DNA from: Anaerolineales bacterium
GTDB lineage: Bacteria > Chloroflexota > Anaerolineae > Anaerolineales > UBA4823
Direction: 5' to 3'
DNA: 64,000 nt
Assembly: GCA_041736465.1 (NCBI GenBank)
Contig: JBGSTO010000706.1
Location: forward strand, 6,588 to 70,587
Under the pieces are notes generated by a model. It saw only the letters and a program-made list of their open reading frames with translations. It was not told the DNA's origin and did not search any database. This document shows positions 1-16,892 of the stretch, piece by piece; the first letter of the stretch is position 1, and each line of letters opens with the position of its first letter. The position numbers and the translations under genes were made by a program.

Positions 1-798
1 ACGCAGCACATCTTCAGTAGTGACCGCCGCCACCAGTCCGCCATCGGCAGTGGCGGCAACCGCCTCGAACCACTCATCATCCGGGTGTTGAATCTGCGCC
101 ATCAATTGCCCATCCGCGCCGCGGTACTTCCAGAGACCCCCCCGGTAAACCATAAAGACGTTGCCAGCCTGGTCGGCAGCCATACTTTTAACATACTGCT
201 CTGCCCCGATGTTCCACAGGAGATAGTAGTTGCCGGAAAGATCGAATTTCTGCACGCGCCCGTCTGAGTAATTGGCAATGAAAAGATTGCCCGCCGGGTC
301 GATGGATATGCCGCGAGGGTCGTCGAAAAGCCCCGCTCCGCTGCCTTCTTCACCAAACGAAAACTCCACCCTGGCAAAGGCAAGCGGATTGACGCGCGCC
401 CCAAGCATCTCCAACGGCCCGCCCGGGGAGAACAGTGCAAACAAGATAGGAATAATGGCGGCGCCCAGGAAGACAACCAGCACAATGAGGCTGACACAGG
501 AAATGCCGCCGGCTGTGGCAGCAGTCACGCCTGCCGCCGCTTTGACTGCCTTTCGACCGTCAATGACCACCGGGCTGGATTGATTAGTCATCGTGCGCGG
601 CGTCTGCACGCTGACCGCCCCGGATGATCCGTGGGTGGACGCAGAGCGGGGCTCCCGGTTTGCTTCAGGCGGTCTTGCACGCAGGGTTTCTGGCACGATG
701 ATCGCAGATTGGCAGTACGGGCACGGGATCACCGGGTCGGCGCTGGCGTCGAGATCCACGGGAGCGCCGCAATTTGGGCACTGGAAGGTTTGGGGCAC
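1..798 (-). CDS. Membrane-anchored NHL-repeat protein with an N-terminal zinc ribbon. Its 3' end lies outside the window.
   Basis: I translated the minus strand myself; the ORF track omits it because no stop is reached. GTG at 798-796 follows AGGAGG (811-806) with a 7-nt spacer. The product reads MPQTFQCPNCGAPVDLDASADPVIPCPYCQSAII (CxxC...CxxC), then a hydrophobic helix ISCVSLIVLVVFLGAAIIPILFALF, then NHL-like repeats (GLFDDPRGISIDPAGNLFIANYSDGRVQKFD). An alternative ATG at 591 would remove the zinc ribbon. Confidence 0.6.
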   Translation of the reverse strand, partial: MPQTFQCPNCGAPVDLDASADPVIPCPYCQSAIIVPETLRARPPEANREPRSASTHGSSGAVSVQTPRTMTNQSSPVVIDGRKAVKAAAGVTAATAGGISCVSLIVLVVFLGAAIIPILFALFSPGGPLEMLGARVNPLAFARVEFSFGEEGSGAGLFDDPRGISIDPAGNLFIANYSDGRVQKFDLSGNYYLLWNIGAEQYVKSMAADQAGNVFMVYRGGLWKYRGADGQLMAQIQHPDDEWFEAVAATADGGLVAAVTTEDVLR

Positions 799-889
799 TG
801 GGCAGCCTCCTGGCTGGAGTATGTAAAATCCCCACGAATTCTATCCGATAAAGCAATTATTGTGAATTGCTGGCGGTGCTCTTTCTCGC

Positions 890-926
890 CCAATTGCCGG
901 GCTTCCCACCAATTGTCATCTATAAT
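890..926 (+). promoter_or_regulatory. Candidate promoter for a leaderless mRNA, with paired direct repeats
   Basis: A perfect TATAAT at 921-926 lies only 7 nt before ATG 934, and there is no Shine-Dalgarno in between. Direct repeats CCAATTGCC (890-898) and CCAATTGTC (909-917) are spaced 19 bp start to start. A further inverted repeat GCAATT-N6-AATTGC is at 853-870. No recognisable -35 is present. Confidence 0.35.
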
Positions 927-933
927 ATGACTG

Positions 934-1926
934 ATGATTGAACTCACTCACCTGCAGAAAATTATCGATCAGCGCACTGCGGTTGACATCGACTCGCTCA
1001 ACGTCGCCGCCGGCGAGATCGCCGCCCTGGTTGGACCGCCAGGCAGCGGCGTGGAAGTGCTGTTTAATTTGCTCATGGGAAAAACGATGCCATCCGCCGG
1101 ATCGGTGCGAATTGCAGGCATCGATCCGGGGAGCGAACGATCCCGCTTAAGCAGATCGGTTGGGGTGATGTTCCAGGAGGATGCTCTTTTCCAGCGGTTA
1201 TCTCCCATCGACAACCTGCTGTTCGCCTGCCGGCTTTACGGGCTGCCCCGCCTGAGAGCGGCGCAGGTGCTCGAACAAATCGGACTGGCAGACCAGGAAC
1301 GCGCCAACCTGGAGAAAATGCCCGGTGGGCTGCTGCGCCGCCTGGCATTTGGACGGGCAATTGTGCACCAGCCGCCCGCGCTGCTGCTGTACGATCCTTT
1401 TGCCCGCTGCGACGAAGCCTCCATTACGCTCCTGTCAGATCAGATCCAGAAAGCCGCGGCAGAGGGTACCTGCACGCTGATCCTGGCGAACGACGAAGCG
1501 CACCTGGCGCCGGTCTGCGATAAAGTTCACACCTTGCAGCAAGGGCGAATTACCAGCATTCGCATTCCCAGGGAAGAAGGCGCATCTGCCCTGCCGTTCA
1601 AGATCCCTGTAAAGGTTGACGAGAAGGTGGTGCTGGTCAACCCGGCAGACATCCTCTTTGCCGATGCCATCGGCGGGCGATCCACGCTGCATACCAGTCA
1701 AGGCCCGCTGTTGAGCCAGTTTACCATCGGCGAGCTGGAAGAGCGCCTGGGGCGCAGCGGCTTCTTCCGCGCCCACCGCTCTTACCTGGTCAACCTGCAG
1801 CACGTGAAAGAAGTCATCCCCTACACCCGCAACAGCTTCTCGCTGCGCCTGGACGACGCCGGAGCAACCGAGATCCCGCTCAGCAAATCCGCAGCCGGCG
1901 AGCTGAGATCGCTGCTGGGCTATTGA
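934..1926 (+). CDS. Degenerate (probably non-catalytic) ABC ATPase-like domain fused to a C-terminal LytTR DNA-binding domain
   Basis: 330 aa. The N-terminal half has the ABC NBD layout but broken motifs. Walker A is GPPGSGVEV (no Lys, no Ser/Thr). The signature is MPGGLLRR instead of LSGGQ. Walker B is LLLYDPF (no catalytic Glu). The H-loop position reads ILANDEAH. The C-terminal part (KIPVKVDEKVVLVNPADILF...FFRAHRSYLVNLQHVKEV...IPLSKS) is a canonical LytTR pattern. Confidence 0.8.
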   Translation: MIELTHLQKIIDQRTAVDIDSLNVAAGEIAALVGPPGSGVEVLFNLLMGKTMPSAGSVRIAGIDPGSERSRLSRSVGVMFQEDALFQRLSPIDNLLFACRLYGLPRLRAAQVLEQIGLADQERANLEKMPGGLLRRLAFGRAIVHQPPALLLYDPFARCDEASITLLSDQIQKAAAEGTCTLILANDEAHLAPVCDKVHTLQQGRITSIRIPREEGASALPFKIPVKVDEKVVLVNPADILFADAIGGRSTLHTSQGPLLSQFTIGELEERLGRSGFFRAHRSYLVNLQHVKEVIPYTRNSFSLRLDDAGATEIPLSKSAAGELRSLLGY

Positions 1927-1970
1927 TTTTTTGACCCATTCAACCCTCCAAAATCGCCATTCACCTCAAC

Positions 1971-1994
1971 AGAGCGCCTTTCGGCGCTTTTTTG
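1971..1994 (+). terminator. Rho-independent terminator-like hairpin
   Basis: AGCGCC (1973-1978), loop TTTC, GGCGCT (1983-1988), followed by TTTTTT (1989-1994). It may only attenuate, because the next genes look functionally linked. Confidence 0.55.
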
Positions 1995-2039
1995 TTGCAC
2001 CGGTTTCCGTTATTTGGAATACTCATAGCGAGGTGTACA

Positions 2040-2798
2040 ATGAATATGGAAATTGATGTTCAAGATCTGGTTCGGACGTACCAAGGGCTGCGTGCTCTGG
2101 ATGGCATTACCTTCTCCGTAGCCCATGGCGAGATCTTTGGCTTTTTGGGGCCGAACGGCGCCGGCAAGACAACCACTATCAAGATCCTGACCGGGCAGCT
2201 GCGCCCTACATCTGGGGTTGCGCGTGTGTGTGGGTTTGACGTCGTCAGCCAGCGCCAGGCGCTGAAGCCCAGGATTGGGGTGGTCTTCGAGACCCAGAAC
2301 CTGTACGAGCGCCTATCTGCTCGGGAAAACCTGGCTTTCACTGCCCGGCTGTATGGCGCTCCGGCACGGCGTGTGGATGAGGTGCTGGAGCTGGTCGGCC
2401 TGCAGGGTCGGGAGCGTGAGCCGCTGAAAAAATACTCCAACGGCATGAAGCAGCGTTTGTTGATCGCCCGCGCTCTGGTGCACCAGCCGTCTGTCCTCTT
2501 CCTGGATGAGCCTACCCGCGGGCTGGACCCTAACGTGGCGCGTGAAATCCGCTCCTTTGTTGCCAATTTATCCCGCCAGGGGGTGACGGTATTCTTGACC
2601 ACGCATTACATGGAAGAAGCCGACCAGCTGTGCCACCGCGTGGCAATCCTGGATCACGGGCGCATCGTGGCGCTGGACGCGCCGCAGCAGTTGAAATCTG
2701 CTTTCAGCCAGGGCAGCGGCACCAGCCTGGAGGATGTATTCGTTCACCTGACCGGACACGCCCTGGAAGCAGAAACGCAGCAGGCAGGTGTGTTATGA
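2040..2798 (+). CDS. ABC transporter ATP-binding protein (ABC-2 / NatA-DrrA type)
   Basis: All motifs are intact: Walker A GPNGAGKTTT, signature YSNGMKQRL, Walker B VLFLDEPTRGLD, H-loop TTHYMEEA. I chose the start at ATG 2040 (MNMEIDVQDL) after GAGGTG. The track ORF starts earlier, at 1992. Confidence 0.9.
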   Translation: MNMEIDVQDLVRTYQGLRALDGITFSVAHGEIFGFLGPNGAGKTTTIKILTGQLRPTSGVARVCGFDVVSQRQALKPRIGVVFETQNLYERLSARENLAFTARLYGAPARRVDEVLELVGLQGREREPLKKYSNGMKQRLLIARALVHQPSVLFLDEPTRGLDPNVAREIRSFVANLSRQGVTVFLTTHYMEEADQLCHRVAILDHGRIVALDAPQQLKSAFSQGSGTSLEDVFVHLTGHALEAETQQAGVL

Positions 2799-5176
2799 AT
2801 GCGGCCCACACGAACCAACCCCAATCGATGAGCTTGCTCGACAGCCTCAGGATTGTCTGGGCGATCACCGCCAAGGACATCCTGGAGGGATTCAAGAACA
2901 AGAATTTGCTCGCCGTGCTCATTTCCGCTCTGTTCATGGTGATCTTCTACCGGTATATGGGCGTGTTCTTGCGGGAAGCAGAACCACCCAATATTCTCAT
3001 CTACGATGCCGGGGAGAGCGCCGGCGCACCATCTGCCCTGGTAGCTTTCCTGCAAAACAGCGACGCAGTGTCTGCCTACACCTACAAATCCGAAGCCGTG
3101 ATGAAGGAAACGCTGACACACGGCGACCTGCCAGAACTGGGCCTCGTCATCCCTCCAGGATTCGATCAATCGCTGCAAACCGGCGCTCCGCTGGAGCTTC
3201 AAGGATATGTGCTGCGCTGGGTGAAACCGGCGGATGCCATCACTCTGCAGCGCAGCGTAGAGGCTGAGGTTTCCAACCTGCTCGGCAAACCCGTGCCGGT
3301 TAACATCGCAGGTAATACCGTCCAGCTCAATCCCGACTCTCACGGGCTTGGCGTTCAGGCCGGCATGGCGATGGTCTTCAGCATCGTGATGATCAGCATC
3401 AGCCTGCTGGGCAACCTGATGCTGGACGAGAAACAGGCGCATACGCTGGATGCTTTGCGCGTCTCTCCGGCAAGCGCCGCTCACCTGGTGCTCTCCAAAG
3501 CGCTCACCGGCATTTTTTACTGTCTGCTGATGGCTGCGGTTGCCGCCTTTCTCAACAGGGAGCTGATCGTTCACTGGTGGCTGCTGTTCCTGGGAGTGCT
3601 TGCCGGGTCGCTGTTTACCGTCTCCCTGGGGCTGCTGCTGGGCATGTCGATTGAGAATCGCGGGCAGATGACTCTTCTCGCCTGGGTGATGATTCTGCCT
3701 CTGTTTCTGCCGCTCATATTCGTGATGATTGAAGAGCTTCTGCCCGCGTGGCTGGTAAAAGTCTCGACACTGATTCCGACGACAGGGTTGTTCAATTTGA
3801 TCCTGGCATCCTTCGCCGGCGAAATCGCCTGGCAGCCAACACTGCTGAGGATTGGCTGGAATCTGGCCTGCGCGGCTGTTGTGATGCTGGTGGTTATCTG
3901 GCAGGTGAAGCGCCAGGATGCCGGAGAGCAGGTAGATCTCGTTCCTGGGTGGCTGCGAAGATTTTTCCACACCCTGCGGCAAGAGACCCATCCGCCGGCA
4001 CACCTCCCGGAAACAGCTTCCGTAAAACCCAAATTACCGCGGGCAGCCTTAATCCCCGAACCGCAGGCAGCCAGACCGGTGCTGCAGAGCGGTCTGCCGG
4101 CAAACCTGCGCATCATCTGGGCAATCGCTGCTAAAGATATGCGCGATGCCTTCCATAACAAGCTGATCCTGTCCATCTTCCTGGCAAGCATGTTCATCCT
4201 GCTGTCCAATTCGGCGCTGCCTCTGCTGATCGAGCGCAGCAGTGATCCAACCGTAATCGTGTACGATGAAGGGCAGTCAACCATACTGCGGGCGTGGGCC
4301 ATCGGCGAAGGCTTCCGGGTGCGCACAACCGACAGCCGGGAGGAGATGGAGTCTATCCTGACCAGCTCTCCGGTTACCTACCTGGGGATGGTACTGCCCT
4401 CAGATTTTGATGCCCGCGCCGGCAGCAGCCAACCAGTCGAGCTGCAGGGCTATGCCGCTCACTGGGCAGATAAAGAAAAAATAGCCGGATGGGTGACCTT
4501 CTTTGAGGGGGAACTGAGCCAGGCATCCTGGAGCACAGTGCGGATTCAGTTAGCGGCTGAGCCGGTCTATCCTCCCTCCCAGTCTTCGGGACAGAACGCT
4601 TTGCTCACGCTCTCGGTGGTCATCGTTCTGATCACAGTTGGGCTGGCGCTGGTGCCCATCCTGCTGGTCGAGGAAAAAGAAAGTCACACCCTGGCTGCCA
4701 TGCTGGTTTCCCCTGCAAATATCTCCCTGGTGATCGCTGGAAAGGCATTGGCCGGGATGCTGTATTGTATGACGGCCGCGCTGGCAGGCATGATCTTAAA
4801 CCGGGCAGTCTTCATCCACTGGGGGGTTGTTTTCCTGGTGGCTTTGGTCTGCGCCATATTCGTCGTCGCCACCGGCTTGCTGATCGGGATGCTTGCTAAC
4901 AGCCCGACAGCGGCTGCTTCCATCGCCGGACCGCTGATCTTCTTGCTGTTGGTGCCGACCATGACCCGGGCTTTCAGACCTGAAGGCTGGCCCCGGTTGG
5001 TAAAAACCATCCTGGAGTGGCAGCCTGGCTCGCTGATGATCAACCTCTTCTCATTGCCCATGACACGCGATGTGCCGCTGAGCATCTTGTGGAGCAATGC
5101 AGCCGCTTTGCTGGCAATGGCTGGTGGGCTCTTTCTCGCCGTGTATCTGGTTGCCCGGCGCAGTATGTACCGGTAA
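2795..5176 (+). CDS. Tandem-fused (internally duplicated) ABC-2 / NatB-like permease
   Basis: ATG 2795 overlaps the upstream stop (ATGA). The two halves are homologous: SLRIVWAITAKDILEGFKNKN matches NLRIIWAIAAKDMRDAFHNK, and DEKQAHTLDALRVSPAS matches EEKESHTLAAMLVSPAN. Each half has one N-terminal TM helix, a large extracytoplasmic loop and a C-terminal TM bundle. Confidence 0.85.
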   Translation: MNAAHTNQPQSMSLLDSLRIVWAITAKDILEGFKNKNLLAVLISALFMVIFYRYMGVFLREAEPPNILIYDAGESAGAPSALVAFLQNSDAVSAYTYKSEAVMKETLTHGDLPELGLVIPPGFDQSLQTGAPLELQGYVLRWVKPADAITLQRSVEAEVSNLLGKPVPVNIAGNTVQLNPDSHGLGVQAGMAMVFSIVMISISLLGNLMLDEKQAHTLDALRVSPASAAHLVLSKALTGIFYCLLMAAVAAFLNRELIVHWWLLFLGVLAGSLFTVSLGLLLGMSIENRGQMTLLAWVMILPLFLPLIFVMIEELLPAWLVKVSTLIPTTGLFNLILASFAGEIAWQPTLLRIGWNLACAAVVMLVVIWQVKRQDAGEQVDLVPGWLRRFFHTLRQETHPPAHLPETASVKPKLPRAALIPEPQAARPVLQSGLPANLRIIWAIAAKDMRDAFHNKLILSIFLASMFILLSNSALPLLIERSSDPTVIVYDEGQSTILRAWAIGEGFRVRTTDSREEMESILTSSPVTYLGMVLPSDFDARAGSSQPVELQGYAAHWADKEKIAGWVTFFEGELSQASWSTVRIQLAAEPVYPPSQSSGQNALLTLSVVIVLITVGLALVPILLVEEKESHTLAAMLVSPANISLVIAGKALAGMLYCMTAALAGMILNRAVFIHWGVVFLVALVCAIFVVATGLLIGMLANSPTAAASIAGPLIFLLLVPTMTRAFRPEGWPRLVKTILEWQPGSLMINLFSLPMTRDVPLSILWSNAAALLAMAGGLFLAVYLVARRSMYR

Positions 5177-6774
5177 TGAACCTGTTCAGGCTTATCCTGC
5201 TTGTTCTGTTCGTCCCGAGCCTGGCGTCGTGTGGATCGACGTCGCCGGCCCAGACCGGCGAAACGGCAGGAACCAGCCCTGCGGCGGAAACCGCACCCAT
5301 GGCGCCTGCCATCCTGCCCCCTCCGCAGACTCCGGGCGAGTACCTGCCTGCCGCCTGCCGCTTCACCCTGCCGCAGGACCTGGTCGAGGGCGTGGATGTG
5401 GAATGCGGCTATCTTACAGTTCCCGAGCAGCGCAGTACCACCAGCGTGCATACCGGAAGGCTCATTCGCCTGGCGGTGGCGATCTTCCACCCACCGGGAG
5501 GCGCAGTCTACCCCGATCCGGTCATCTTCCTTACCGGCGGGCCAGGATTTAGCGCCATGGAAGCCATGTACTACCAGTTCGAGGCGCTCTCTGAAGCGCC
5601 TCACGCCGCGGGGCGCGATCTGCTGGTCTTCGACCAGCGCGGCATTGGCTTATCCCAACCTGCGCTCGATTGCCCGGGCTACGATCATTTCGCTCTGGAG
5701 AGCCTGCGCCTCCAGGCCGAAGGGCAGGCGCTCGATGATCAGCAAATGCTGGAAATTACCCTCGAGCAGCTATCCCTCTGCCGCGACGCCCTTGCAGGCA
5801 TCGCCGATCTCTCCGCTTATCACACGGCTGCCAGCGCCGCAGATGTAAACGATCTGCGCCTGGCGCTCGGGTATGAGCAAATCAACCTGTGGGGCGGATC
5901 CTACGGCAGCCGCCTTGCTCTGGAAGTCATGCGCCGATATCCGCAAACCTTGCGCAGTGTGATCCTGGATGCCATTTACCCTCCGGACGTTGACCTTTAT
6001 GTATCGGCGCCGGCAAATTTCCACCGCTCGCTCGAGCGCATGTTCGCCAGCTGCGCGGAGAACCCGGTATGCGACCAGTCTCACCCGAACCTACGCCAGG
6101 TTTTTTATGATACCGTCGCCAGGTTGAATACGCAGCCGGTTGTAAGAGAGATCTGGGAACCAAACAGCGGCGAGGAAATCCAGGTGAAGCTGGATGGAAA
6201 TACCCTGATTGGGTTAACTTTTCAACTGCTCTACGACAGTAAAATCCGCTACCTGCTGCCCAAGTACATCGCCGCCGCAAACCAGGGAGATTTCACCGCT
6301 TTCGACCGCATCCGCGAGGCAATCCTGATCCGGCAGAAATATTCCAGCCGGGGGATGATGTTTTCGGTGCAGTGCCACGAAGAGATCGCCTTCAGCAGCC
6401 TGGATGATTTCCAAAAGGAAGCGGCGAAATATCCGGAGTTGGCGAGCTTCTACCAGCAATCCATATTGGGAATGCTTACCTACCGCGTTTGCGAGAGTTG
6501 GGGCGCAGGCGCAGCAGATGAAAGCGCCAACCAGCCGGTGTACAGCGATATTCCCACATTGCTGTTCAGCGGTGAGTTCGATCCCATCACGCCGCCTTCC
6601 TGGGGGGCGCATACCGCCAGCACGCTGGAGAACGCCTACCATTACGAGTTCCCCGGCGTTGGGCATGGCGCCAGCGCCCTATCCGGCTGCCCGCGCCAGA
6701 TGATGGTGGAATTTTTAGGCAATCCAGGCAGACCGCCGGATGACGCCTGCATCGCCAGCCTTCTCGATCCCTGA
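5176..6774 (+). CDS. Lipoprotein alpha/beta hydrolase, peptidase S33 / tripeptidyl-aminopeptidase (TAP)-like
   Basis: ATG 5176 overlaps stop TAA 5174-5176. The lipobox is LVLFVPSLASCGS. The oxyanion motif is LTGGPGFS and the nucleophile elbow is GGSYGS. The C-terminal TAP-like segment reads LLFSGEFDPITP...FPGVGHGA. Confidence 0.8.
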   Translation: MNLFRLILLVLFVPSLASCGSTSPAQTGETAGTSPAAETAPMAPAILPPPQTPGEYLPAACRFTLPQDLVEGVDVECGYLTVPEQRSTTSVHTGRLIRLAVAIFHPPGGAVYPDPVIFLTGGPGFSAMEAMYYQFEALSEAPHAAGRDLLVFDQRGIGLSQPALDCPGYDHFALESLRLQAEGQALDDQQMLEITLEQLSLCRDALAGIADLSAYHTAASAADVNDLRLALGYEQINLWGGSYGSRLALEVMRRYPQTLRSVILDAIYPPDVDLYVSAPANFHRSLERMFASCAENPVCDQSHPNLRQVFYDTVARLNTQPVVREIWEPNSGEEIQVKLDGNTLIGLTFQLLYDSKIRYLLPKYIAAANQGDFTAFDRIREAILIRQKYSSRGMMFSVQCHEEIAFSSLDDFQKEAAKYPELASFYQQSILGMLTYRVCESWGAGAADESANQPVYSDIPTLLFSGEFDPITPPSWGAHTASTLENAYHYEFPGVGHGASALSGCPRQMMVEFLGNPGRPPDDACIASLLDP

Positions 6775-6786
6775 ACAAATAAAAAA

Positions 6787-6816
6787 GAGCCTGATCTGCC
6801 AGGCAAATCAGGCTCT
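6787..6816. terminator. Bidirectional hairpin terminator between convergent genes
   Basis: GAGCCTGAT (6787-6795) pairs with ATCAGGCTC (6808-6816). An A-run lies upstream and a T-containing tail downstream. It sits between the S33 hydrolase (+) and rpsA (-). Confidence 0.6.
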
Positions 6817-6838
6817 TAATGTTCAGATTGAAGGGCTG

Positions 6839-8092
6839 CTACTCGACGATTGTCTCGTCTTCGCCGCTCTTCGTCTCGTCCACTTCTTCAGCCATAAACG
6901 TTTTGTAGTCGAGATCGGCATAATGGGGTGAATCCACTTTGCGCAGGCTCAGGCCGATGCGGCGCCGTTCGGCATCAATTTTAATGACTCGCAGCGTCAG
7001 CGTATCGCCTTCTTTGACCACCTCTTTAGGGTGACCGATGCGCTGCTCGCTCAGCTCTGAGACGTGAATCAGGCCTTCCAGATCTTCGCCCAGGCTGGCA
7101 AATGCGCCGAACTTGGTCAGGTGGGTGATCTTGCCTTCGATGAGCTGGCCTTCCTTGATGTGACCGACGCGCCGCACCCAGGGATCGTCCAGAAGCTGGC
7201 GGATGGATAAACCGATGCGTTTGCGGTCACGATCCACGCTGATGACTTTTACATCGACTTCCTGGCCCACTTTGAGCACCTCGTTCGGGTGCTGAATACG
7301 ATCCCAGGAGATCTCAGAAAGATGTACCAGGCCATCAGCGCCGTCGATATTCACAAATGCGCCGAAATCAGCCACGCTGGTCACTCGCCCTTTGCGAATG
7401 TCTCCCGGGTTCAGCTCATCCAGCAAGCGGTCTTTCAACGACTCGCGCGTTTCTTGCAGGGCAGAGCGTTCGGAAAGAATCAAACGGCGGCGCTCGCGAT
7501 CCACCTCGATGATTTTCACGCTGATCTTATCACCGACCATCTTGCCCCAGCGCTGGTCTGGCGTATCTCCCGACATAGTGGCACGGCGCACCATGCTGAT
7601 TTGAGACGCAGGCACAAAACCACGCAGACGCCCGATTGGCACCAACAACCCGCCCTTGTTGAAGCCGATGATCTTGCTGTCGTACACGTCGTTCGATTCC
7701 AGCAGCGCTTCGGCTTCTTCCCAATCTCGCTCTTCGCGAGCGCGAGCATAGGACAATACTACATTGCCGTTTGCATCTTCTGGAACCAGCACGTAAACGG
7801 GAATCTCATCTCCCACGCGGAGGCTGGCGCGCTCCTCAGCGGGGATAGATTCCAGTTCACGACCGGAAATCACACCTTCCGATTTGGTTCCAACACTCAC
7901 CAGGATTTCATTCTCTCCCAGGGTGGCGACGATACCCGTACGGATTTCACCTTGTTTGGGGAAATCCAGGCCCAGTCCTTCCGCTTCCAACAGGGACTCC
8001 ATCGAAGCTGAATCTGGTTGTGGCTGTAGGACTTCTGCTTGCTCGCTTGCGGGCTGTCCCCCTTGCCCGATGATGACGTCTTTCTCTTCCAT
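6839..8092 (-). CDS. rpsA: 30S ribosomal protein S1 (four S1 domains)
   Basis: 417 aa with repeated S1 OB-fold modules (GEIRTGIV..., IIGFNKGGLLVPIGRLRGFVPASQIS, GDIRKGRVTSVADFGAFVNIDGADGLVHLSEIS, GQLIEGKITHLTKFGAFASL...GLIHVSELS). Confidence 0.9.
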   Translation of the reverse strand: MEEKDVIIGQGGQPASEQAEVLQPQPDSASMESLLEAEGLGLDFPKQGEIRTGIVATLGENEILVSVGTKSEGVISGRELESIPAEERASLRVGDEIPVYVLVPEDANGNVVLSYARAREERDWEEAEALLESNDVYDSKIIGFNKGGLLVPIGRLRGFVPASQISMVRRATMSGDTPDQRWGKMVGDKISVKIIEVDRERRRLILSERSALQETRESLKDRLLDELNPGDIRKGRVTSVADFGAFVNIDGADGLVHLSEISWDRIQHPNEVLKVGQEVDVKVISVDRDRKRIGLSIRQLLDDPWVRRVGHIKEGQLIEGKITHLTKFGAFASLGEDLEGLIHVSELSEQRIGHPKEVVKEGDTLTLRVIKIDAERRRIGLSLRKVDSPHYADLDYKTFMAEEVDETKSGEDETIVE

Positions 8093-8216: not shown

Positions 8217-9320
8217 ATGCCGTATATCTATCCGTTTACTGCAATTGTTGCGCAGGAGCGCATGAAACGCGCCCTGGTACTGAATGCCGTTGATCCACGC
8301 ATCGGCGGAGTTCTGATCCGCGGCGAGCGGGGTACCGCCAAATCTACGGCAGCCAGAGCCTTAGCGGCATTGCTGCCGAAAGTTGCCCTGGTAGCAGACT
8401 GCCGTTTCGGTTGTGACCCAGATCGCCCGACCACCTGGTGCACTGAATGCCGTGAGAGAGCTGAGCGCGGCCAGATGCTGCCGGTAGAACTGCGCACAAC
8501 GCCTTTCGTCAATTTACCCGTTTCGGCAACCGAAGACCGCGTGGTAGGCACCCTCGACATCGAAAAGGCTATCCAAAAAGGCGAGCGCCACTTCGAACCC
8601 GGCGTACTGGCAGCCGCCAATCGTGGGCTGCTGTATATCGATGAGGTCAACCTTTTGGATGACCATGTCGTTGATCTTCTGCTTGACTCTGCAGCCATGG
8701 GCATGAACATCGTCGAGCGGGAAGGCATCTCTTTCTCACACCCGGCGCGCTTCATCCTGGTCGGGACGATGAATCCCGAAGAAGGCGATCTGCGCCCGCA
8801 GCTGCTGGACCGGTTTGCGCTCTCGGTGGAAATTCACGGCATTCGCGATGCCCGTGAACGCGTACTCATCATGGAGCGAAACCTGGCCTTCGAAAGCAGC
8901 CCTGAAGATTTCCGCAAACAGTGGCTGCACTCTGAAGATGATCTGTCCCAACAGATTGACCAAGCGCGCCTGCTGGTGGATCAGGTTACCTACAGCCGCC
9001 GCGACCTGCTCTCCATTGCAGCGCTGAGCGCTTCGCTGAATGTTGATGGACATCGCGCCGACCTCGTTATCCTCAAGACGGCTCGCGCTCACGCAGCTTT
9101 CGAAGGGCGCAAAGCCATCACCGATCGTGATATCGCCCTGGCTGCCGAACTGGCGCTGCCCCACCGCATCAAGCGCGGCCCCTTCCACCAGGCTGAGATC
9201 AGCATGGAAGACCTGCAGGAGCGCATCGAGCAGCTCCAGGGGCAGACCTTTTCTTCCGGCGAACCTGAACCGGTCCCGGATGAGAACCCTCAGCAAAACC
9301 CCGAAAAAAAAAAGGGGTGA
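8217..9320 (+). CDS. Magnesium-chelatase subunit I (ChlI/BchI)-like AAA+ ATPase
   Basis: YPFTAIVAQERMKRALVLNAVDPRIGGVLIRGERGTAKST (Walker A), LYIDEVNLLDDHVVDLLLD (Walker B), GTMNPEEGDLRPQLLDRF. It is collinear with BchI as I remember it. There is a Cys-rich insert CRFGCDPDRPTTWCTEC. The C-terminal tail is Pro/Glu-rich and ends EKKKG. Confidence 0.85.
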   Translation: MPYIYPFTAIVAQERMKRALVLNAVDPRIGGVLIRGERGTAKSTAARALAALLPKVALVADCRFGCDPDRPTTWCTECRERAERGQMLPVELRTTPFVNLPVSATEDRVVGTLDIEKAIQKGERHFEPGVLAAANRGLLYIDEVNLLDDHVVDLLLDSAAMGMNIVEREGISFSHPARFILVGTMNPEEGDLRPQLLDRFALSVEIHGIRDARERVLIMERNLAFESSPEDFRKQWLHSEDDLSQQIDQARLLVDQVTYSRRDLLSIAALSASLNVDGHRADLVILKTARAHAAFEGRKAITDRDIALAAELALPHRIKRGPFHQAEISMEDLQERIEQLQGQTFSSGEPEPVPDENPQQNPEKKKG

Positions 9321-9348
9321 GTCCGGAGATTTTACCGGAAGAGGACTC
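9304..9348 (+). other. A10 homopolymer containing the heptamer A_AAA_AAG, followed by a small hairpin, at the ChlI-like/vWA gene junction
   Basis: Positions 9304-9313 are ten A residues followed by GGGG. In the ChlI frame the codons are GAA AAA AAA AAG GGG TGA. GAGTCC (9319-9324) can pair with GGACTC (9343-9348), or alternatively TCCGG (9322-9326) with CCGGA (9335-9339). Confidence 0.9.
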
Positions 9349-10267
9349 TAACCGACATCCCGCCGAGCCTGCGCCGCAGCAAGTCTTCGACACAGGCAGG
9401 GCAAACTGGTGGGAAGGCGGCGAAAAGGTTAAGATCGGGCAGTCTTTCATCCCCCGAAAAATCGAAAACCCTCTCGACCGGACGAGCCGCCGCCAGAGCG
9501 GTCGCCGGTCGCGCACCCGTACGGATCGAAAACGCGGCCGCTACATTCAAGCGCGCCCTTCTCCTGGCAAACCATACGACCTGGCTTTCGATGCCACCCT
9601 GCGCGCCGCTGCCCCATTTCAACGACAGCGCAGCGAACTGCGCAAACGTGTGGCTTTTGCGGTGCGCTCGTCCGATTACCAGCGCAAGATTCGCATCAAG
9701 AAAGCTTCTAACCTGGTTTTGTTCGTGGTGGATGCCTCCTGGTCGATGGCAGTGGCTGAGCGCATGGCAGCTACCAAGGGCGCGATCCTGTCGCTGCTCA
9801 CCGATGCATACCAACGCCGCGACCGGGTAGGACTGGTTGTTTTCCAGAAAGATCGCGCCACACTGGTGCTGCCGCCTACCAACTCGGTGCACCTGGCGCA
9901 GCGCTCCCTGGCAGACATCCCGGTTGGCGGTAAGACGCCGCTCTCCGCAGGCCTGATCATGGCGCACGAAGTCATCCGTAAAGAACGCATCGTGCATCCG
10001 GACATCAATCCATTGATCATACTGCTGACCGATGGCGCCGGGAATGTATCGCTTACCAGCCTGCCGCCGCAGGAAGAAGCTCACCGTATCGCCGCTCAAG
10101 TTGCCGAGGATGAAATCCGCAGCGTGGTGATCAATATGGAACACGCCGCTTTTGACCAGGGATTGGCTCAATCTCTGGCTGAGCAGCTCCAGGCGCCCTG
10201 CTATACGCTCAACGAACTAAAGGCTGAAGCCCTGTATCAAAAGGTGCGCGCAGAGATGGCTGCGTAG
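9317..10267 (+). CDS. von Willebrand factor A (vWA) domain protein resembling the C-terminal half of ChlD/BchD
   Basis: GTG 9317 overlaps stop TGA 9318-9320 (GTGA). An acidic/Pro-rich and then basic N-terminal linker precedes the vWA domain. The MIDAS-like motif is VLFVVDASWSM. Other vWA-type segments are GGKTPLSAGL and IILLTDGAGNV. Confidence 0.8.
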   Translation: MSPEILPEEDSNRHPAEPAPQQVFDTGRANWWEGGEKVKIGQSFIPRKIENPLDRTSRRQSGRRSRTRTDRKRGRYIQARPSPGKPYDLAFDATLRAAAPFQRQRSELRKRVAFAVRSSDYQRKIRIKKASNLVLFVVDASWSMAVAERMAATKGAILSLLTDAYQRRDRVGLVVFQKDRATLVLPPTNSVHLAQRSLADIPVGGKTPLSAGLIMAHEVIRKERIVHPDINPLIILLTDGAGNVSLTSLPPQEEAHRIAAQVAEDEIRSVVINMEHAAFDQGLAQSLAEQLQAPCYTLNELKAEALYQKVRAEMAA

Positions 10268-10276
10268 GCGAAACAC

Positions 10277-11881
10277 GTGTCTCATCCTGCTCCCCAAGAC
10301 AGATCGCTTTTGCTGTCCGTCAATGCCGGAATACAGCTGCGCAGATGGATTTTTATCCTGATGCTGAGCTTCGGGCTGGCTGCCTGCCAGGGCACGCTCG
10401 AACCTGCCTCTGGTGTGCAAACGCCCCCTCCTTCTACGACTGCTGCCTCCTTACCCGAAAAAACTCCGACTACGGAACCTGGCTCGTCGCCCACAATGAG
10501 CCCAACGGCATCTATTGATGCTTCCCCCTCCGGGTTAGAGACTGCAACGCCGCCGGCAGATGCGTTCCCCGGCATTCAGGGGCCGAGTGCGCAGTACACG
10601 CTGACCGCAGTTCTGAATTACTCCGCTCATTACATTACCGTCGACCAGCAAATCGCCTATACCAATCGATCCAGCGATGTGCTGACAGACCTGCGCTTGA
10701 TGGTCGAGCCGGCTTATTACCCGGGATCATTTCGCCTCAATGGCATCACCGTTCGGTCCGGACCGCAAATTGGAGAACCGGTCTGGGATACTGGTCAAAT
10801 CTCGCTGTCGCTGCTATCTCCATTGTCGCCAGGTGAAAGTATAACGCTGGCATTGTCGTATGAAATCAACCTGCCGAAGCCGTCGCCATCCGAAGAAACG
10901 CGCCCGGTCCCATTCGGATACACCGAACGCCAGACCAACCTGGTCGACTGGTACCCATTCATCCCTCCGTACCGGGATGGAAGCGGCTGGTTGGCCAACA
11001 AAGCCTATTTTTTTGGCGAGCACCTGGCATATGAAGCCGCGAATTTCACCGTCAATCTACGCATATCGGATGAGAATTCTTTCCACGTCGTCGCTGCCAG
11101 TTCCCAGGCGCAAGTAGACGGCGAGTGGCGAAGATATCAGATCAACGATGCGCGTGGCTTTGCTTTTTCGGTGAGCACGCAGTACCAGGTAGAAAGCCTG
11201 CAAGTAGGAGCCGTTCAGGTCACCAGCTATACCTTTCCCTTTAATCCAACTGCCGGGGAAGCCGTTTTGGATACCACAGCCAAAGCGGTGGCTTTGTACA
11301 GCGAGCTTTTTGGCCCTTACCCGCATGACACTCTGGCGGTGGTCGAAGCAAACTTCCTGGATGGGATGGAATACGACGGGCTGTACTTTCTGAGTAATGG
11401 CTTCTACAATCTCTACCAGGGCACGCCGGCAGAATACCTGATCGCCATCGCTGCGCACGAGACCGCTCACCAGTGGTTTTACGGGCTGGTGGGCAACGAT
11501 CAGGGAAATGAACCCTGGTTGGATGAGGCCTTATGCACCTACAGCGAACGCCTGTTTTTTGAGCGCTACTACCCGGAAGCCCTGGACTGGTGGTGGACTT
11601 ACCGCATAAACTACTACCAACCGCGCGGCAGCGTGGATGGTAGCATCTATAATCCGGGGGGGTACCGGTCTTACCGGGATGCAGTCTATCTCAATGGGGC
11701 TGTCTTCATGGAAGAGCTGCGGAAGACCATTGGCGAGCAGGCATTCCGTTCTTTTTTACGCGACTACGTAGATCAGAATCGAAATAAGATTGCTACCGGT
11801 GAAGATTTTTTTGACCTGTTGAAGCAGTACACAACGGTAGACCTGAGCGAGATCAAAGCGCGCTTCTTTTCAGCGCCTTAA
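10277..11881 (+). CDS. Lipoprotein M1-family (gluzincin) zinc metallopeptidase
   Basis: The lipobox is FILMLSFGLAACQG, followed by a Pro/Thr/Ser-rich linker. HETAH plus 18 residues plus E (HETAHQWFYGLVGNDQGNEPWLDEAL) equals the M1 HEXXH-X18-E signature. The gene starts 10 nt after the vWA stop. The start codon (GTG 10277) is uncertain. Confidence 0.8.
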   Translation: MSHPAPQDRSLLLSVNAGIQLRRWIFILMLSFGLAACQGTLEPASGVQTPPPSTTAASLPEKTPTTEPGSSPTMSPTASIDASPSGLETATPPADAFPGIQGPSAQYTLTAVLNYSAHYITVDQQIAYTNRSSDVLTDLRLMVEPAYYPGSFRLNGITVRSGPQIGEPVWDTGQISLSLLSPLSPGESITLALSYEINLPKPSPSEETRPVPFGYTERQTNLVDWYPFIPPYRDGSGWLANKAYFFGEHLAYEAANFTVNLRISDENSFHVVAASSQAQVDGEWRRYQINDARGFAFSVSTQYQVESLQVGAVQVTSYTFPFNPTAGEAVLDTTAKAVALYSELFGPYPHDTLAVVEANFLDGMEYDGLYFLSNGFYNLYQGTPAEYLIAIAAHETAHQWFYGLVGNDQGNEPWLDEALCTYSERLFFERYYPEALDWWWTYRINYYQPRGSVDGSIYNPGGYRSYRDAVYLNGAVFMEELRKTIGEQAFRSFLRDYVDQNRNKIATGEDFFDLLKQYTTVDLSEIKARFFSAP

Positions 11882-11955
11882 GGGCTGCACTTAATGATGG
11901 TTTATTTAACTCATTGATATTTAAAGAGTTAATATATCGTAGTATTCGTAGGGGG

Positions 11956-12253
11956 TGTGGATATGTGGAGAACCTTGTTTTCAGTCAAATTCACCCTCAG
12001 TGATATGGGAAGCAGCAGCAGTACACCCCACATTTACGGTTAAGGAGGTGTGTTTTTATCCCCAGGCGGAACGGGATGAAACGCGAGAAAGATTGGTGAG
12101 AATCGCCATCCCACACAGGAGCGCGGCTATATCGGGGAAGGGAAAAAAGACCCCCCATATATGGGGGTGGGCGGGCAGGTCATTTTTAGCACAAAATAGC
12201 CAGTTTTCCCCAGATTAGAGGATTTATCCACAGTTTTTCGCGAGTTATCCACA
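11956..12253. promoter_or_regulatory. Cluster of DnaA-box motifs in a 550-bp non-coding region
   Basis: There are two perfect TTATCCACA boxes, at 12224-12232 and 12245-12253, in direct orientation and 21 bp apart. There are three one-mismatch boxes: TGTGGATAT 11956-11964, TGTGGAGAA 11964-11972 (both on the opposite strand) and TTATCCCCA 12056-12064. Confidence 0.6.
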
Positions 12254-12357
12254 TCTGGCGGTGTGCGGGGGGACTTTCGGGTGTTTTTCTTAACCCTATA
12301 TATGGGGGTATCCTTGTCACATATAGATCGCCTATCGATAGTGTATGTGTTCAATTC

Positions 12358-12386
12358 TTGACGAGATTATTTTTCCGGTTTATGAT
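12358..12386 (+). promoter_or_regulatory. Sigma-70-type promoter for the ArsR-like gene
   Basis: TTGACG (12358-12363), a 17-nt spacer, then TATGAT (12381-12386), about 45 nt upstream of ATG 12432. Confidence 0.5.
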
Positions 12387-16810: not shown

Positions 16811-16892
16811 TGCCGAAGGTGGGAATCGAACCCACACTCCCGAAGGAACACGATTTTGAGTCGTGCGCGTCTGCCTATTCCGCCACTCCGGC
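16811..16892 (-). tRNA. tRNA-Leu (anticodon CAA)
   Basis: The minus-strand sequence is GCCGGAGTGGCGGAATAGGCAGACGCGCACGACTCAAAATCGTGTTCCTTCGGGAGTGTGGGTTCGATTCCCACCTTCGGCA. The acceptor pairs GCCGGAG with CTTCGGC. The anticodon stem is CACGA/TCGTG with loop CTCAAAA. It has a long variable arm and a GTGGG-TTCGATT-CCCAC T arm. CCA is not encoded. Confidence 0.9.

Follow-up and report, generated by a model that had tools for sequence, protein, structure and literature searches.

What might a DNA-binding protein sense when its input domain is a transporter ATPase with broken catalytic motifs? The question is raised by a stretch of 64,000 nucleotides from an Anaerolineales bacterium of the Chloroflexota (assembly GCA_041736465.1, contig JBGSTO010000706.1, positions 6,588 to 70,587 of the forward strand), called the window throughout, in which a nucleotide-binding domain (NBD) of the ATP-binding cassette (ABC) type is fused to a LytTR DNA-binding domain and encoded ahead of the genes of an ABC-2 pump. 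A reading made from the sequence alone (the sequence-only reading) had proposed that the fusion protein is a transporter-coupled one-component switch, which we regard as a live and attractive hypothesis. We found that the fusion gene and the pump genes form a module that is conserved and widespread in two bacterial phyla. A receiver-less LytTR factor very probably controls the pump operon, and we consider it fairly probable that it does so with a pseudo-NBD input that engages the transporter.

The domain composition of the fusion protein was established by sequence and structure searches. A Pfam search placed ABC_tran (PF00005, 68.9 bits) at residues 21–156 and LytTR (PF04397) in the C-terminal part, the latter with 78.2 bits against a gathering cut-off of 22.6 and covering positions 2–97 of the 98 in the profile. 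In the AlphaFold2 model, built on a 43-sequence alignment, residues 1–210 have a predicted local distance difference test score (pLDDT) above 90, and Foldseek matched this model to the solved NBDs TM_1403, LptB, FtsE and MalK with a root-mean-square deviation of 2.2–2.8 Å over about 224 columns (target-normalised TM of about 0.8 for LptB, FtsE and TM_1403). The N-terminus has the RecA-like part and the helical subdomain of the NBD fold, so that the description of the protein as an ABC NBD with a C-terminal LytTR domain is borne out and the possibility that the N-terminal half has another fold can be set aside. The top NCBIfam match of the fused NBD is the DrrA/ABC-2 subfamily, the same as for its live partner. 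Conservation within the family is highest in the LytTR domain, where the FFRAHRSYLVNLQHV block is nearly invariant, and none of the sequences in the PDB spans both domains. As the sequence-only reading had stated, receiver and kinase are absent: the Pfam search gave no Response_reg match in the fusion protein, whose N-terminus is the NBD, and no receiver-domain or histidine kinase gene is found among its neighbours in the window, which are a zinc-ribbon/NHL gene, the pump genes, an S1-domain gene and a Mg-chelatase-like AAA gene.

The positions of the catalytic motifs (Table 1) were fixed with two alignments, one to the live NBD of the next gene, which runs over 199 aa without gaps at 34% identity, and one by profile to ABCA3. 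Walker A, Walker B with the catalytic glutamate, the Q-loop, the H-loop and the LSGGQ signature, all expected in a competent ABC ATPase, are defective in the fusion protein, and the two alignments together confirmed every defect that the sequence-only reading had listed. Its account of Walker B, in which the catalytic glutamate was missing, is refined in one respect, namely that the aspartate is lost too, with Tyr153 at its position, and that Asp154 replaces the catalytic glutamate.

These defects are family-wide. In the 120 best database matches (58–85% identity, about 330 aa, from Anaerolineales/Chloroflexota metagenome bins; hereafter the close homologues), PF00005 and PF04397 are both present without exception, the Q-loop glutamine is always replaced by aspartate, and the Walker B aspartate is always missing, with Val, Tyr, Phe, Ala or other residues in its place. 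Neither the H-loop histidine nor the final glutamine of the signature is kept in any of them, and the signature serine is found in 16. The lysine of Walker A is kept in 81 of the 120 (68%), all 81 retaining GxxGxGK, and is followed by Ser/Thr in only 26, while the D-loop aspartate is invariant. A HMMER scan of 1.84 billion cluster representatives returned 135 proteins at E ≤ 1e-30, and at least 51 of the 150 best matches (clusters at 50% identity) carry both domains, down to about 30% identity. In the 41 full-length distant representatives that we aligned (42 sequences with the window protein), the motifs are degenerate as well, often far more so: Walker A reads, for example, CSKSVGKS or SSMNVRHT and is wholly lost in most distant members, and a few retain GSGKTT and LDEP, yet without the H-loop histidine. 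Orthologs with intact Walker motifs, which would have pointed to local decay, are thus not the rule among either the 120 close or the 41 distant relatives, and the degeneracy is not strain-specific decay. From the substitutions we infer that the dead NBD would be unable to hydrolyse ATP and that the window protein would be unable to bind Mg-ATP in the canonical manner.

What the family has kept is also informative. The best-conserved NBD positions in the 42 diverse fusions are Gly27, Gly56, Tyr86, Leu118, Leu129, Arg136, Pro155 and Asp160 of the D-loop, and the live NBD has the same residue at each of them but position 129, where it has Tyr. Tyr86 is the aromatic residue after the Q-loop, which contacts coupling helices in LptB. 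The dead and live consensus sequences agree most in the Q-loop/helical subdomain and in the helix after the signature, and least in the C-terminal catalytic third.

The gene neighbourhood is conserved together with the fusion. A one-genome-per-species scan yielded 49 Chloroflexota loci with a full-length relative of the fusion protein, and wherever the contig continues (about 44 loci) the fusion gene is followed by a non-coding gap, a live NBD gene and an ABC-2 permease. In 43 loci the length of the gap is between 113 and 902 nt, L009 has one of 3390 nt, and the two genes overlap in none. The live ATPases are 63–76% identical among these loci, and the permeases are either fused as in the window or encoded by two to three separate paralogous genes. 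Six distant loci were examined, one each from Tenuibacillus multivorans, Alkalicoccus urumqiensis, two other complete genomes and two metagenome contigs. All of them have the same gene order, and four come from named or complete Bacillota-type genomes. An ABC-2 transporter therefore always adjoins the fusion gene, across phyla, and the scenario in which the two never co-occur is contradicted. Each of the six distant loci has one small permease gene of 232–346 aa, so that the pairing of a dead and a live NBD on an asymmetric permease, on which the sequence-only reading had built, is not a general feature of the module.

With the Tenuibacillus protein as the query, the fusion architecture was found in many cultured members of the Bacillaceae and Planococcaceae, among them Sporosarcina, Cytobacillus, Virgibacillus, Oceanobacillus, Jeotgalibacillus and Ornithinibacillus. 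Nor is the architecture rare: it occurs in hundreds to thousands of database proteins under generic names, either 'LytTR family transcriptional regulator DNA-binding domain-containing protein' or 'ABC-2 type transport system ATP-binding protein'.

We next consider the region between the fusion gene and the live ATPase gene, where the conserved regulatory elements lie (Table 1). In the window this gap is 113 nt long, contains no open reading frame and has no known RNA element according to an Rfam scan of the window, in which the only match was a tRNA at 16811–16892 on the minus strand. The intergenic regions were aligned on the conserved TTGTTGCA block, and 40 of 44 loci conform to the consensus (C)TCCATTCA – N12 – (G)CCATTCA – N~12 – GCGCC-N4-GGCGC – TTTTTT(G/A)TTGCA – N17/18 – TATACT, of which TTTTT(G/A)TTGCA is the best-conserved block. 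With a position weight matrix (PWM), the three repeats of the window, R1, R2 and R3, score 11.6, 12.8 and 7.6, respectively. The R1–R2 pair is the only match to CCRTTCR-N14-CCRTTCR in the 64 kb; with one mismatch allowed, 0.6 matches are expected by chance, and because one window alone is non-significant, the weight of the pair rests on its in-register conservation. In 540 kb of related loci, 101 of the 126 PWM pair matches fall in this one intergenic region, an enrichment that is partly circular because the PWM was trained on that region.

The third element of the consensus is variable in nature. It is a hairpin of −6 kcal/mol or lower with a T-run in 26 of the 40 loci, with a conserved stem and a varying loop (TTTC, GTTC, GCCT, GATT and others), and a repeat-like 12-mer in 20 of the 40; loci that lack the hairpin show a clear third repeat there (for example, L039, L040, L022 and L031), and the window has both hairpin and repeat. 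Direct repeats at 20–21 bp are also present in the equivalent gap of the distant loci L081, L083, L085, L087 and L088. Those of the Bacillota loci read CTCCACTCA/CTCCATTCA in L081 and GCTCCATTCA/GCTCCAAACC/GCTCCTTTCA in L085, with the CTCCATTCA motif at 21-bp spacing in both; L087 has three copies, and L088 has a variant, GCCAGTTGTC, twice, which resembles AlgR sites. By eye, the −35 region of the Bacillota loci looks poor (for example, ATGCTG).

In LytTR promoters described earlier, two 9-bp direct repeats, separated by 12 bp, stand immediately before the −35 element (PMC2714321). R1 and R2 show this arrangement of direct repeats and 12-bp spacer, and R3 abuts the −35 element. The likely target of the LytTR domain is therefore the predicted group of CCATTCA repeats at 1934–1986, upstream of the pump promoter. 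Another promoter candidate proposed by the scanner, TTGGAA-16-TACAAT at 2014–2041, was rejected, since it overlaps the start codon and is not conserved, and was replaced by TTGCA-17-TATACT.

Table 1. Features of the pseudo-NBD–LytTR module in the window, with motif states of the fusion protein.
Feature	Position	Strand	Basis or detail
Candidate −10 element (TATAAT) of the regulator gene's promoter	921–926	+	read from sequence; 7 nt before the ATG at 934
Pseudo-NBD–LytTR gene	934–1926	+	open reading frame, 330 aa; PF00005 and PF04397 matches
Predicted catalytically dead ABC NBD, aa 1–215	934–1578	+	model, Foldseek, motif tallies
LytTR DNA-binding domain, aa 231–328	1624–1917	+	PF04397, 78.2 bits, E = 5.9e-22
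Walker A	fusion protein		GPPGSGVEV, without Lys and without Ser/Thr
Q-loop Gln	fusion protein		Asp83
Signature	fusion protein		MPGGL (family consensus LPSGL)
Walker B Asp	fusion protein		Tyr153
Catalytic Glu	fusion protein		Asp154
H-loop His	fusion protein		Asn186/Asp187
D-loop	fusion protein		ARCD, kept
Direct repeat R1, ACCCATTCAACC	1934–1945	+	in register with R1 of 40 related loci
Direct repeat R2, CGCCATTCACCT	1955–1966	+	21 bp after R1
Weaker third repeat R3, CGCCTTTCGGCG	1975–1986	+	20 bp after R2, within the hairpin
GC hairpin AGAGCGCC-TTTC-GGCGCTTT with T-run	1971–1993	+	terminator scan; fold −12.4 kcal/mol
−35-like TTGCAC of the pump operon promoter	1995–2000	+	conserved block TTTTT(G/A)TTGCA
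−10-like AATACT	2018–2023	+	17 nt after −35; consensus TATACT at 17–18 nt, 40 loci
Ribosome-binding site GAGGTG	2030–2035	+	ahead of the ATG at 2040
Live DrrA/NatA-like ABC ATPase, 252 aa	2040–2798	+	PF00005, 116.9 bits; TIGR01188, 288 bits
Fused two-half ABC-2 permease, 793 aa	2795–5176	+	two ABC2_membrane_3 stretches
Lipoprotein alpha/beta hydrolase with TAP-like C-terminal domain, 532 aa	5176–6774	+	PF00561, PF08386

The sequence-only reading had placed the fusion gene in one operon with the pump genes. The overlaps ATGA (2795–2798) and TAATG (5174–5178), both present as described, tie the ATPase, permease and hydrolase genes together. Membership of the fusion gene in this operon is unsupported, as the gene has a promoter to itself and ends in most loci at a terminator-like hairpin, and a separate promoter lies between it and the ATPase gene. 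On this basis, the fusion gene is predicted to be a separate transcription unit, and genes 2–4 to be the regulated operon.

The same reading had proposed positions 850–933, upstream of the fusion gene, as the LytTR target, which is probably the wrong place given the conserved repeats at 1934–1986. We rejected a LytTR site there: the region contains no CCATTCA-type repeat pair, and it also serves as the promoter region of a divergent gene on the minus strand. Neither the window nor its relatives have a repeat pair upstream of the regulator gene, and no strong match turned up there when the 540 kb of related loci were scanned for pairs with the PWM. It should be noted that CCAATTG occurs twice in 850–933 (890–896 and 909–915), in addition to further AATTG copies. 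Because the TATAAT lies only 7 nt before the ATG, the mRNA of the regulator may be leaderless; the position of this hexamer is not conserved, and the related loci have an extended −10 element, TGCTAAAAT or TGCTAAGAT, 45–70 nt upstream. The divergent gene (window 1–801, minus strand) runs off the left end of the window, and its product begins with a zinc-ribbon-like CxxC…CxxC segment, followed by a hydrophobic stretch and then by NHL/beta-propeller repeats; its likely start is a GTG near 800 with AGGAGG ahead of it.

The pump itself was recognised as the sequence-only reading had described it. The live ATPase is an intact NBD by its PF00005 and TIGR01188 matches and by its motifs (GPNGAGKTT, Q-loop, LDEP and H-loop); the permease has two ABC2_membrane_3 stretches, and its two halves are 30% identical over 268 aa (E = 2e-44); and the product of the last gene is a lipoprotein hydrolase, with alpha/beta hydrolase Pfam matches and the lipobox LASC (…VPSLASC) in its N-terminus, MNLFRLILLVLFVPSLASC. 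With an intact DrrA/NatA-type ATPase and a translationally coupled ABC-2 permease, positions 2040–5176 encode an ABC-2 exporter. We also considered whether the signature of the live NBD, YSNGM, makes it a degenerate partner to the dead NBD, and rejected the idea, as the Bacillota partners have LSKGM or FSRGM; an S-x-G-M signature is normal for NatA/BcrA-type ATPases.

According to the model that we favour, the regulator would be a LytTR transcription factor without a receiver, in which the input is an NBD that has kept its fold and lost catalysis. At least two LytTR domains would bind the repeats along the same helical face, which would put the pump operon under their control, and the TTGCA-17 nt-TATACT promoter would drive the ATPase, the permease and, in the window, the lipoprotein hydrolase. 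The in-register repeats argue well for this binding and for control of the pump operon. Since the sites precede the −35 element, as they do at AgrA/PlnC-type promoters, activation seems the likelier mode of control and repression the less likely one. The dead NBD would reversibly engage its own transporter, either at a docking site of the permease or at the live NBD, and the occupancy or abundance of the transporter would set the amount of regulator that is free to dimerise on the promoter. Among the parts retained are the D-loop aspartate, the aromatic residue that follows the Q-loop and the helical subdomain, through which NBDs contact a partner NBD and the coupling helices of the permease. 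This is suggestive, and the dead NBD might be a protein-interaction module that contacts its own transporter. In the most specific form of the model, the transporter itself would act as the sensor: the dead NBD would reversibly occupy an NBD docking site of the permease or pair with the live NBD, and a LytTR activator would be set free to bind the CCATTCA repeats when substrate drives the pump through its cycle or when pump subunits run short. Such a covalently fused, flux-sensing one-component system, conserved from Chloroflexota to Bacillota, is a tentative idea, which we rate as possible rather than probable.

Several points weigh against the favoured model. The contact between the dead NBD and the transporter is suggested by sequence hints alone, and the conserved NBD residues prove no interface because they are also fold-determining. 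The synteny is equally explained by an ordinary regulator beside its target. The direction of control is deduced from the position of the sites alone, and the Chloroflexota promoter might need no activator because it has fair −35 and −10 hexamers. A phosphate-containing ligand could be the real signal because 68% of the close homologues keep the Walker A lysine. Finally, the LytTR part was modelled with modest confidence (pLDDT 42–77).

In a rival explanation, the regulator is an autonomous sensor or dimeriser, with the pump as a mere regulated target that the pseudo-NBD never touches. A head-to-tail NBD dimer, constitutive or driven by a cytoplasmic ligand in a remodelled pocket, would then set two LytTR domains on the repeats. 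The arrangement would be ordinary, as regulators beside their target pumps are commonplace, and the regulator is separately transcribed. The D-loop aspartate, a dimer-interface residue, is invariant, the 81 close homologues with GxxGxGK would fit a retained pocket, and LytTR factors bind repeats as dimers (PMC2714321). Against this, Walker A is gone in most distant members, and a common ligand is unlikely because the pocket residues are not conserved across the fusion family. It would also leave unexplained why the input is a DrrA/ABC-2-type NBD like that of the live partner, and why the closest likeness to the live NBD is found in the permease-facing helical subdomain. We regard this explanation as rather unlikely.

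A different role would be that of an obligate subunit, in which the dead NBD sits opposite the live NBD on the asymmetric permease and is needed for transport, with the LytTR domain riding along. The window permease is a fused pseudo-heterodimer served by one ATPase gene, the Chloroflexota relatives always have heteromeric or fused permeases, and transporters with one degenerate NBD are well known (PMC7756269). However, the single small permease gene in the six distant relatives implies a homodimer, no locus shows translational coupling of the fusion gene to the pump genes, and a terminator mostly lies behind the fusion gene. A dead/live pair would be left without any canonical ATP site, because the signature of the dead NBD is degenerate too, together with its Q-loop, Walker A, Walker B and H-loop. 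It is also normal for one NBD gene to serve two different permease halves, as in LptB2FG. Such a role for the dead NBD is improbable.

Decay or artefact, in which a dying ATPase gene was fused by accident to a LytTR gene or the assembly is chimeric, would account for the broken motifs taken alone and is negligible in probability, being excluded by the conservation of the fusion: the 330-aa architecture recurs in all 120 top matches from many independent assemblies, in 49 species-level genomes, in at least 51 clusters at 50% identity and in cultured Bacillota, with an intact reading frame and an NBD fold modelled with high confidence.

Several side observations concern the composition of the module. 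A hydrolase gene follows the pump genes in at least eight other Chloroflexota loci (L005, L006, L008, L011, L012, L014, L016 and L046), and the distant locus L088 has, in the equivalent place (4357–5523), a barely related alpha/beta hydrolase with the lipobox LLLLAAGC. This recurrence suggests that the exporter is functionally linked to an extracytoplasmic hydrolase. In the window, a strong 15-bp hairpin with a T-run (6785–6817, minus strand) lies between the end of the hydrolase gene at 6774 and a convergent S1-domain gene (6839–8092, minus strand) and probably marks the end of both transcription units.

Two genomes contain two paralogous whole modules each, with their own pump genes (L009 and L028 in assembly VRUJ01, L035 and L042 in assembly JAHEEY01). 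In L009, about 3.4 kb (9075–12384) sets the regulator gene apart from the repeat promoter, which stays beside the pump genes; by eye, the inserted open reading frames look like genes for an extracytoplasmic function (ECF)-type sigma factor, a zinc-finger anti-sigma factor and membrane proteins. Twelve loci with long gaps (L001, L006, L011, L013, L015, L018, L026, L031, L033, L034, L036 and L044) hold a small open reading frame of 65–120 aa between the repeat promoter and the ATPase gene; it is absent from the window, encodes a Gly-rich, glycine-zipper-like membrane protein with no Pfam match, and recalls in its place the membrane inhibitors of LytTR Regulatory Systems. Judging by names alone, many of the named Bacillota carriers belong to salt- or alkali-tolerant genera (Tenuibacillus, Alkalicoccus, Salibacterium, Natronobacillus, Virgibacillus, Oceanobacillus, Salsuginibacillus and Aquibacillus), which hints at a role of the pump, possibly a NatAB-like one.

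In the open-access full-text literature, we found no paper on a protein with ABC_tran and LytTR domains. The regulator family is real, conserved and widespread, with a concrete predicted operator, and apparently unstudied; since databases already show the architecture, what is new is the function proposed for it. If a dead ATPase does read its own pump, this would be a compact form of signalling without a kinase or a small-molecule pocket, in which a recycled transporter subunit serves as the input, and a fused member would be added to the short list of transporter-coupled regulators (MalK–MalT, BceAB–BceS). It would also give a role to pseudo-ATPases now labelled 'ABC-2 ATP-binding protein' or 'LytTR regulator', and such fusion genes should then not be counted as transporter ATPases in annotation. 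The three-gene unit with its repeat motif is present in cultured Sporosarcina, Cytobacillus, Virgibacillus, Oceanobacillus and Tenuibacillus and is thus a directly testable module. Even on the conservative reading, a LytTR subfamily that has not been studied gains a concrete predicted operator and a promoter, both of them conserved.

The closest known systems include the LytTR response regulators, among them AgrA, ComE, PlnC/PlnD and AlgR; NatR of the NatK–NatR/NatAB system of B. subtilis controls an ABC-2 pump. The fusion protein shares the C-terminal LytTR domain with regulators of the AgrA/ComE/PlnC/NatR type, and with NatR also an ABC-2 pump as the target. It differs from them in having no receiver, no kinase gene nearby and a dead ABC ATPase as the input, so that it is not a two-component response regulator and its signal cannot be phosphorylation. 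In trigger transporters, such as MalK–MalT and BceAB–BceS, a factor controls the genes of an ABC transporter, and how active this factor is depends on the state of that transporter. This logic is similar to the one proposed here, but there an active ATPase acts on a separate regulator, whereas in the present module a dead ATPase paralogue is covalently fused to the regulator and the contact is a proposed one. The promoters of the module resemble those of the LytTR response regulators, with direct repeats of 9–10 bp and a spacer of about 12 bp directly upstream of the −35 element (PMC2714321).

Receiver-less LytTR regulators under the control of a membrane protein are known from the LytTR Regulatory Systems (HdrRM, BrsRM and relatives; Zou et al. 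2018, PMC6193735), several of which (SMU_433/434, SMU_1070c/1069c and lmo0984-0987) are linked to ABC transporter genes. Their regulators are small stand-alone proteins, co-transcribed with a small membrane inhibitor and autoregulated (PMC6193735). The absence of a receiver is common to both, but the fusion protein carries a pseudo-NBD, the window has no inhibitor gene, and there are no repeats upstream of the fusion gene and no sign of autoregulation; with no dedicated membrane inhibitor in the window, the fusion would fall outside the LytTR Regulatory Systems as defined by Zou et al. 2018. In the heterodimeric exporters TM287/288, PatAB, TAP1/2 and CFTR (PMC7756269), an NBD incapable of hydrolysis is likewise retained by selection; their degenerate NBD binds ATP and keeps a canonical signature, one site works, and the NBD is an integral subunit. 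The fusion protein differs from these in that Walker A and the signature are both degenerate, it is separately transcribed, and it has a DNA-binding domain; a hairpin and a promoter part its gene from the pump genes, with a gap of at least 113 nt in all 44 loci.

Taken together, these comparisons lead us to infer that the fusion module would work like a LytTR activator at an AgrA/PlnC-type promoter, and it may at the same time resemble a trigger-transporter circuit.

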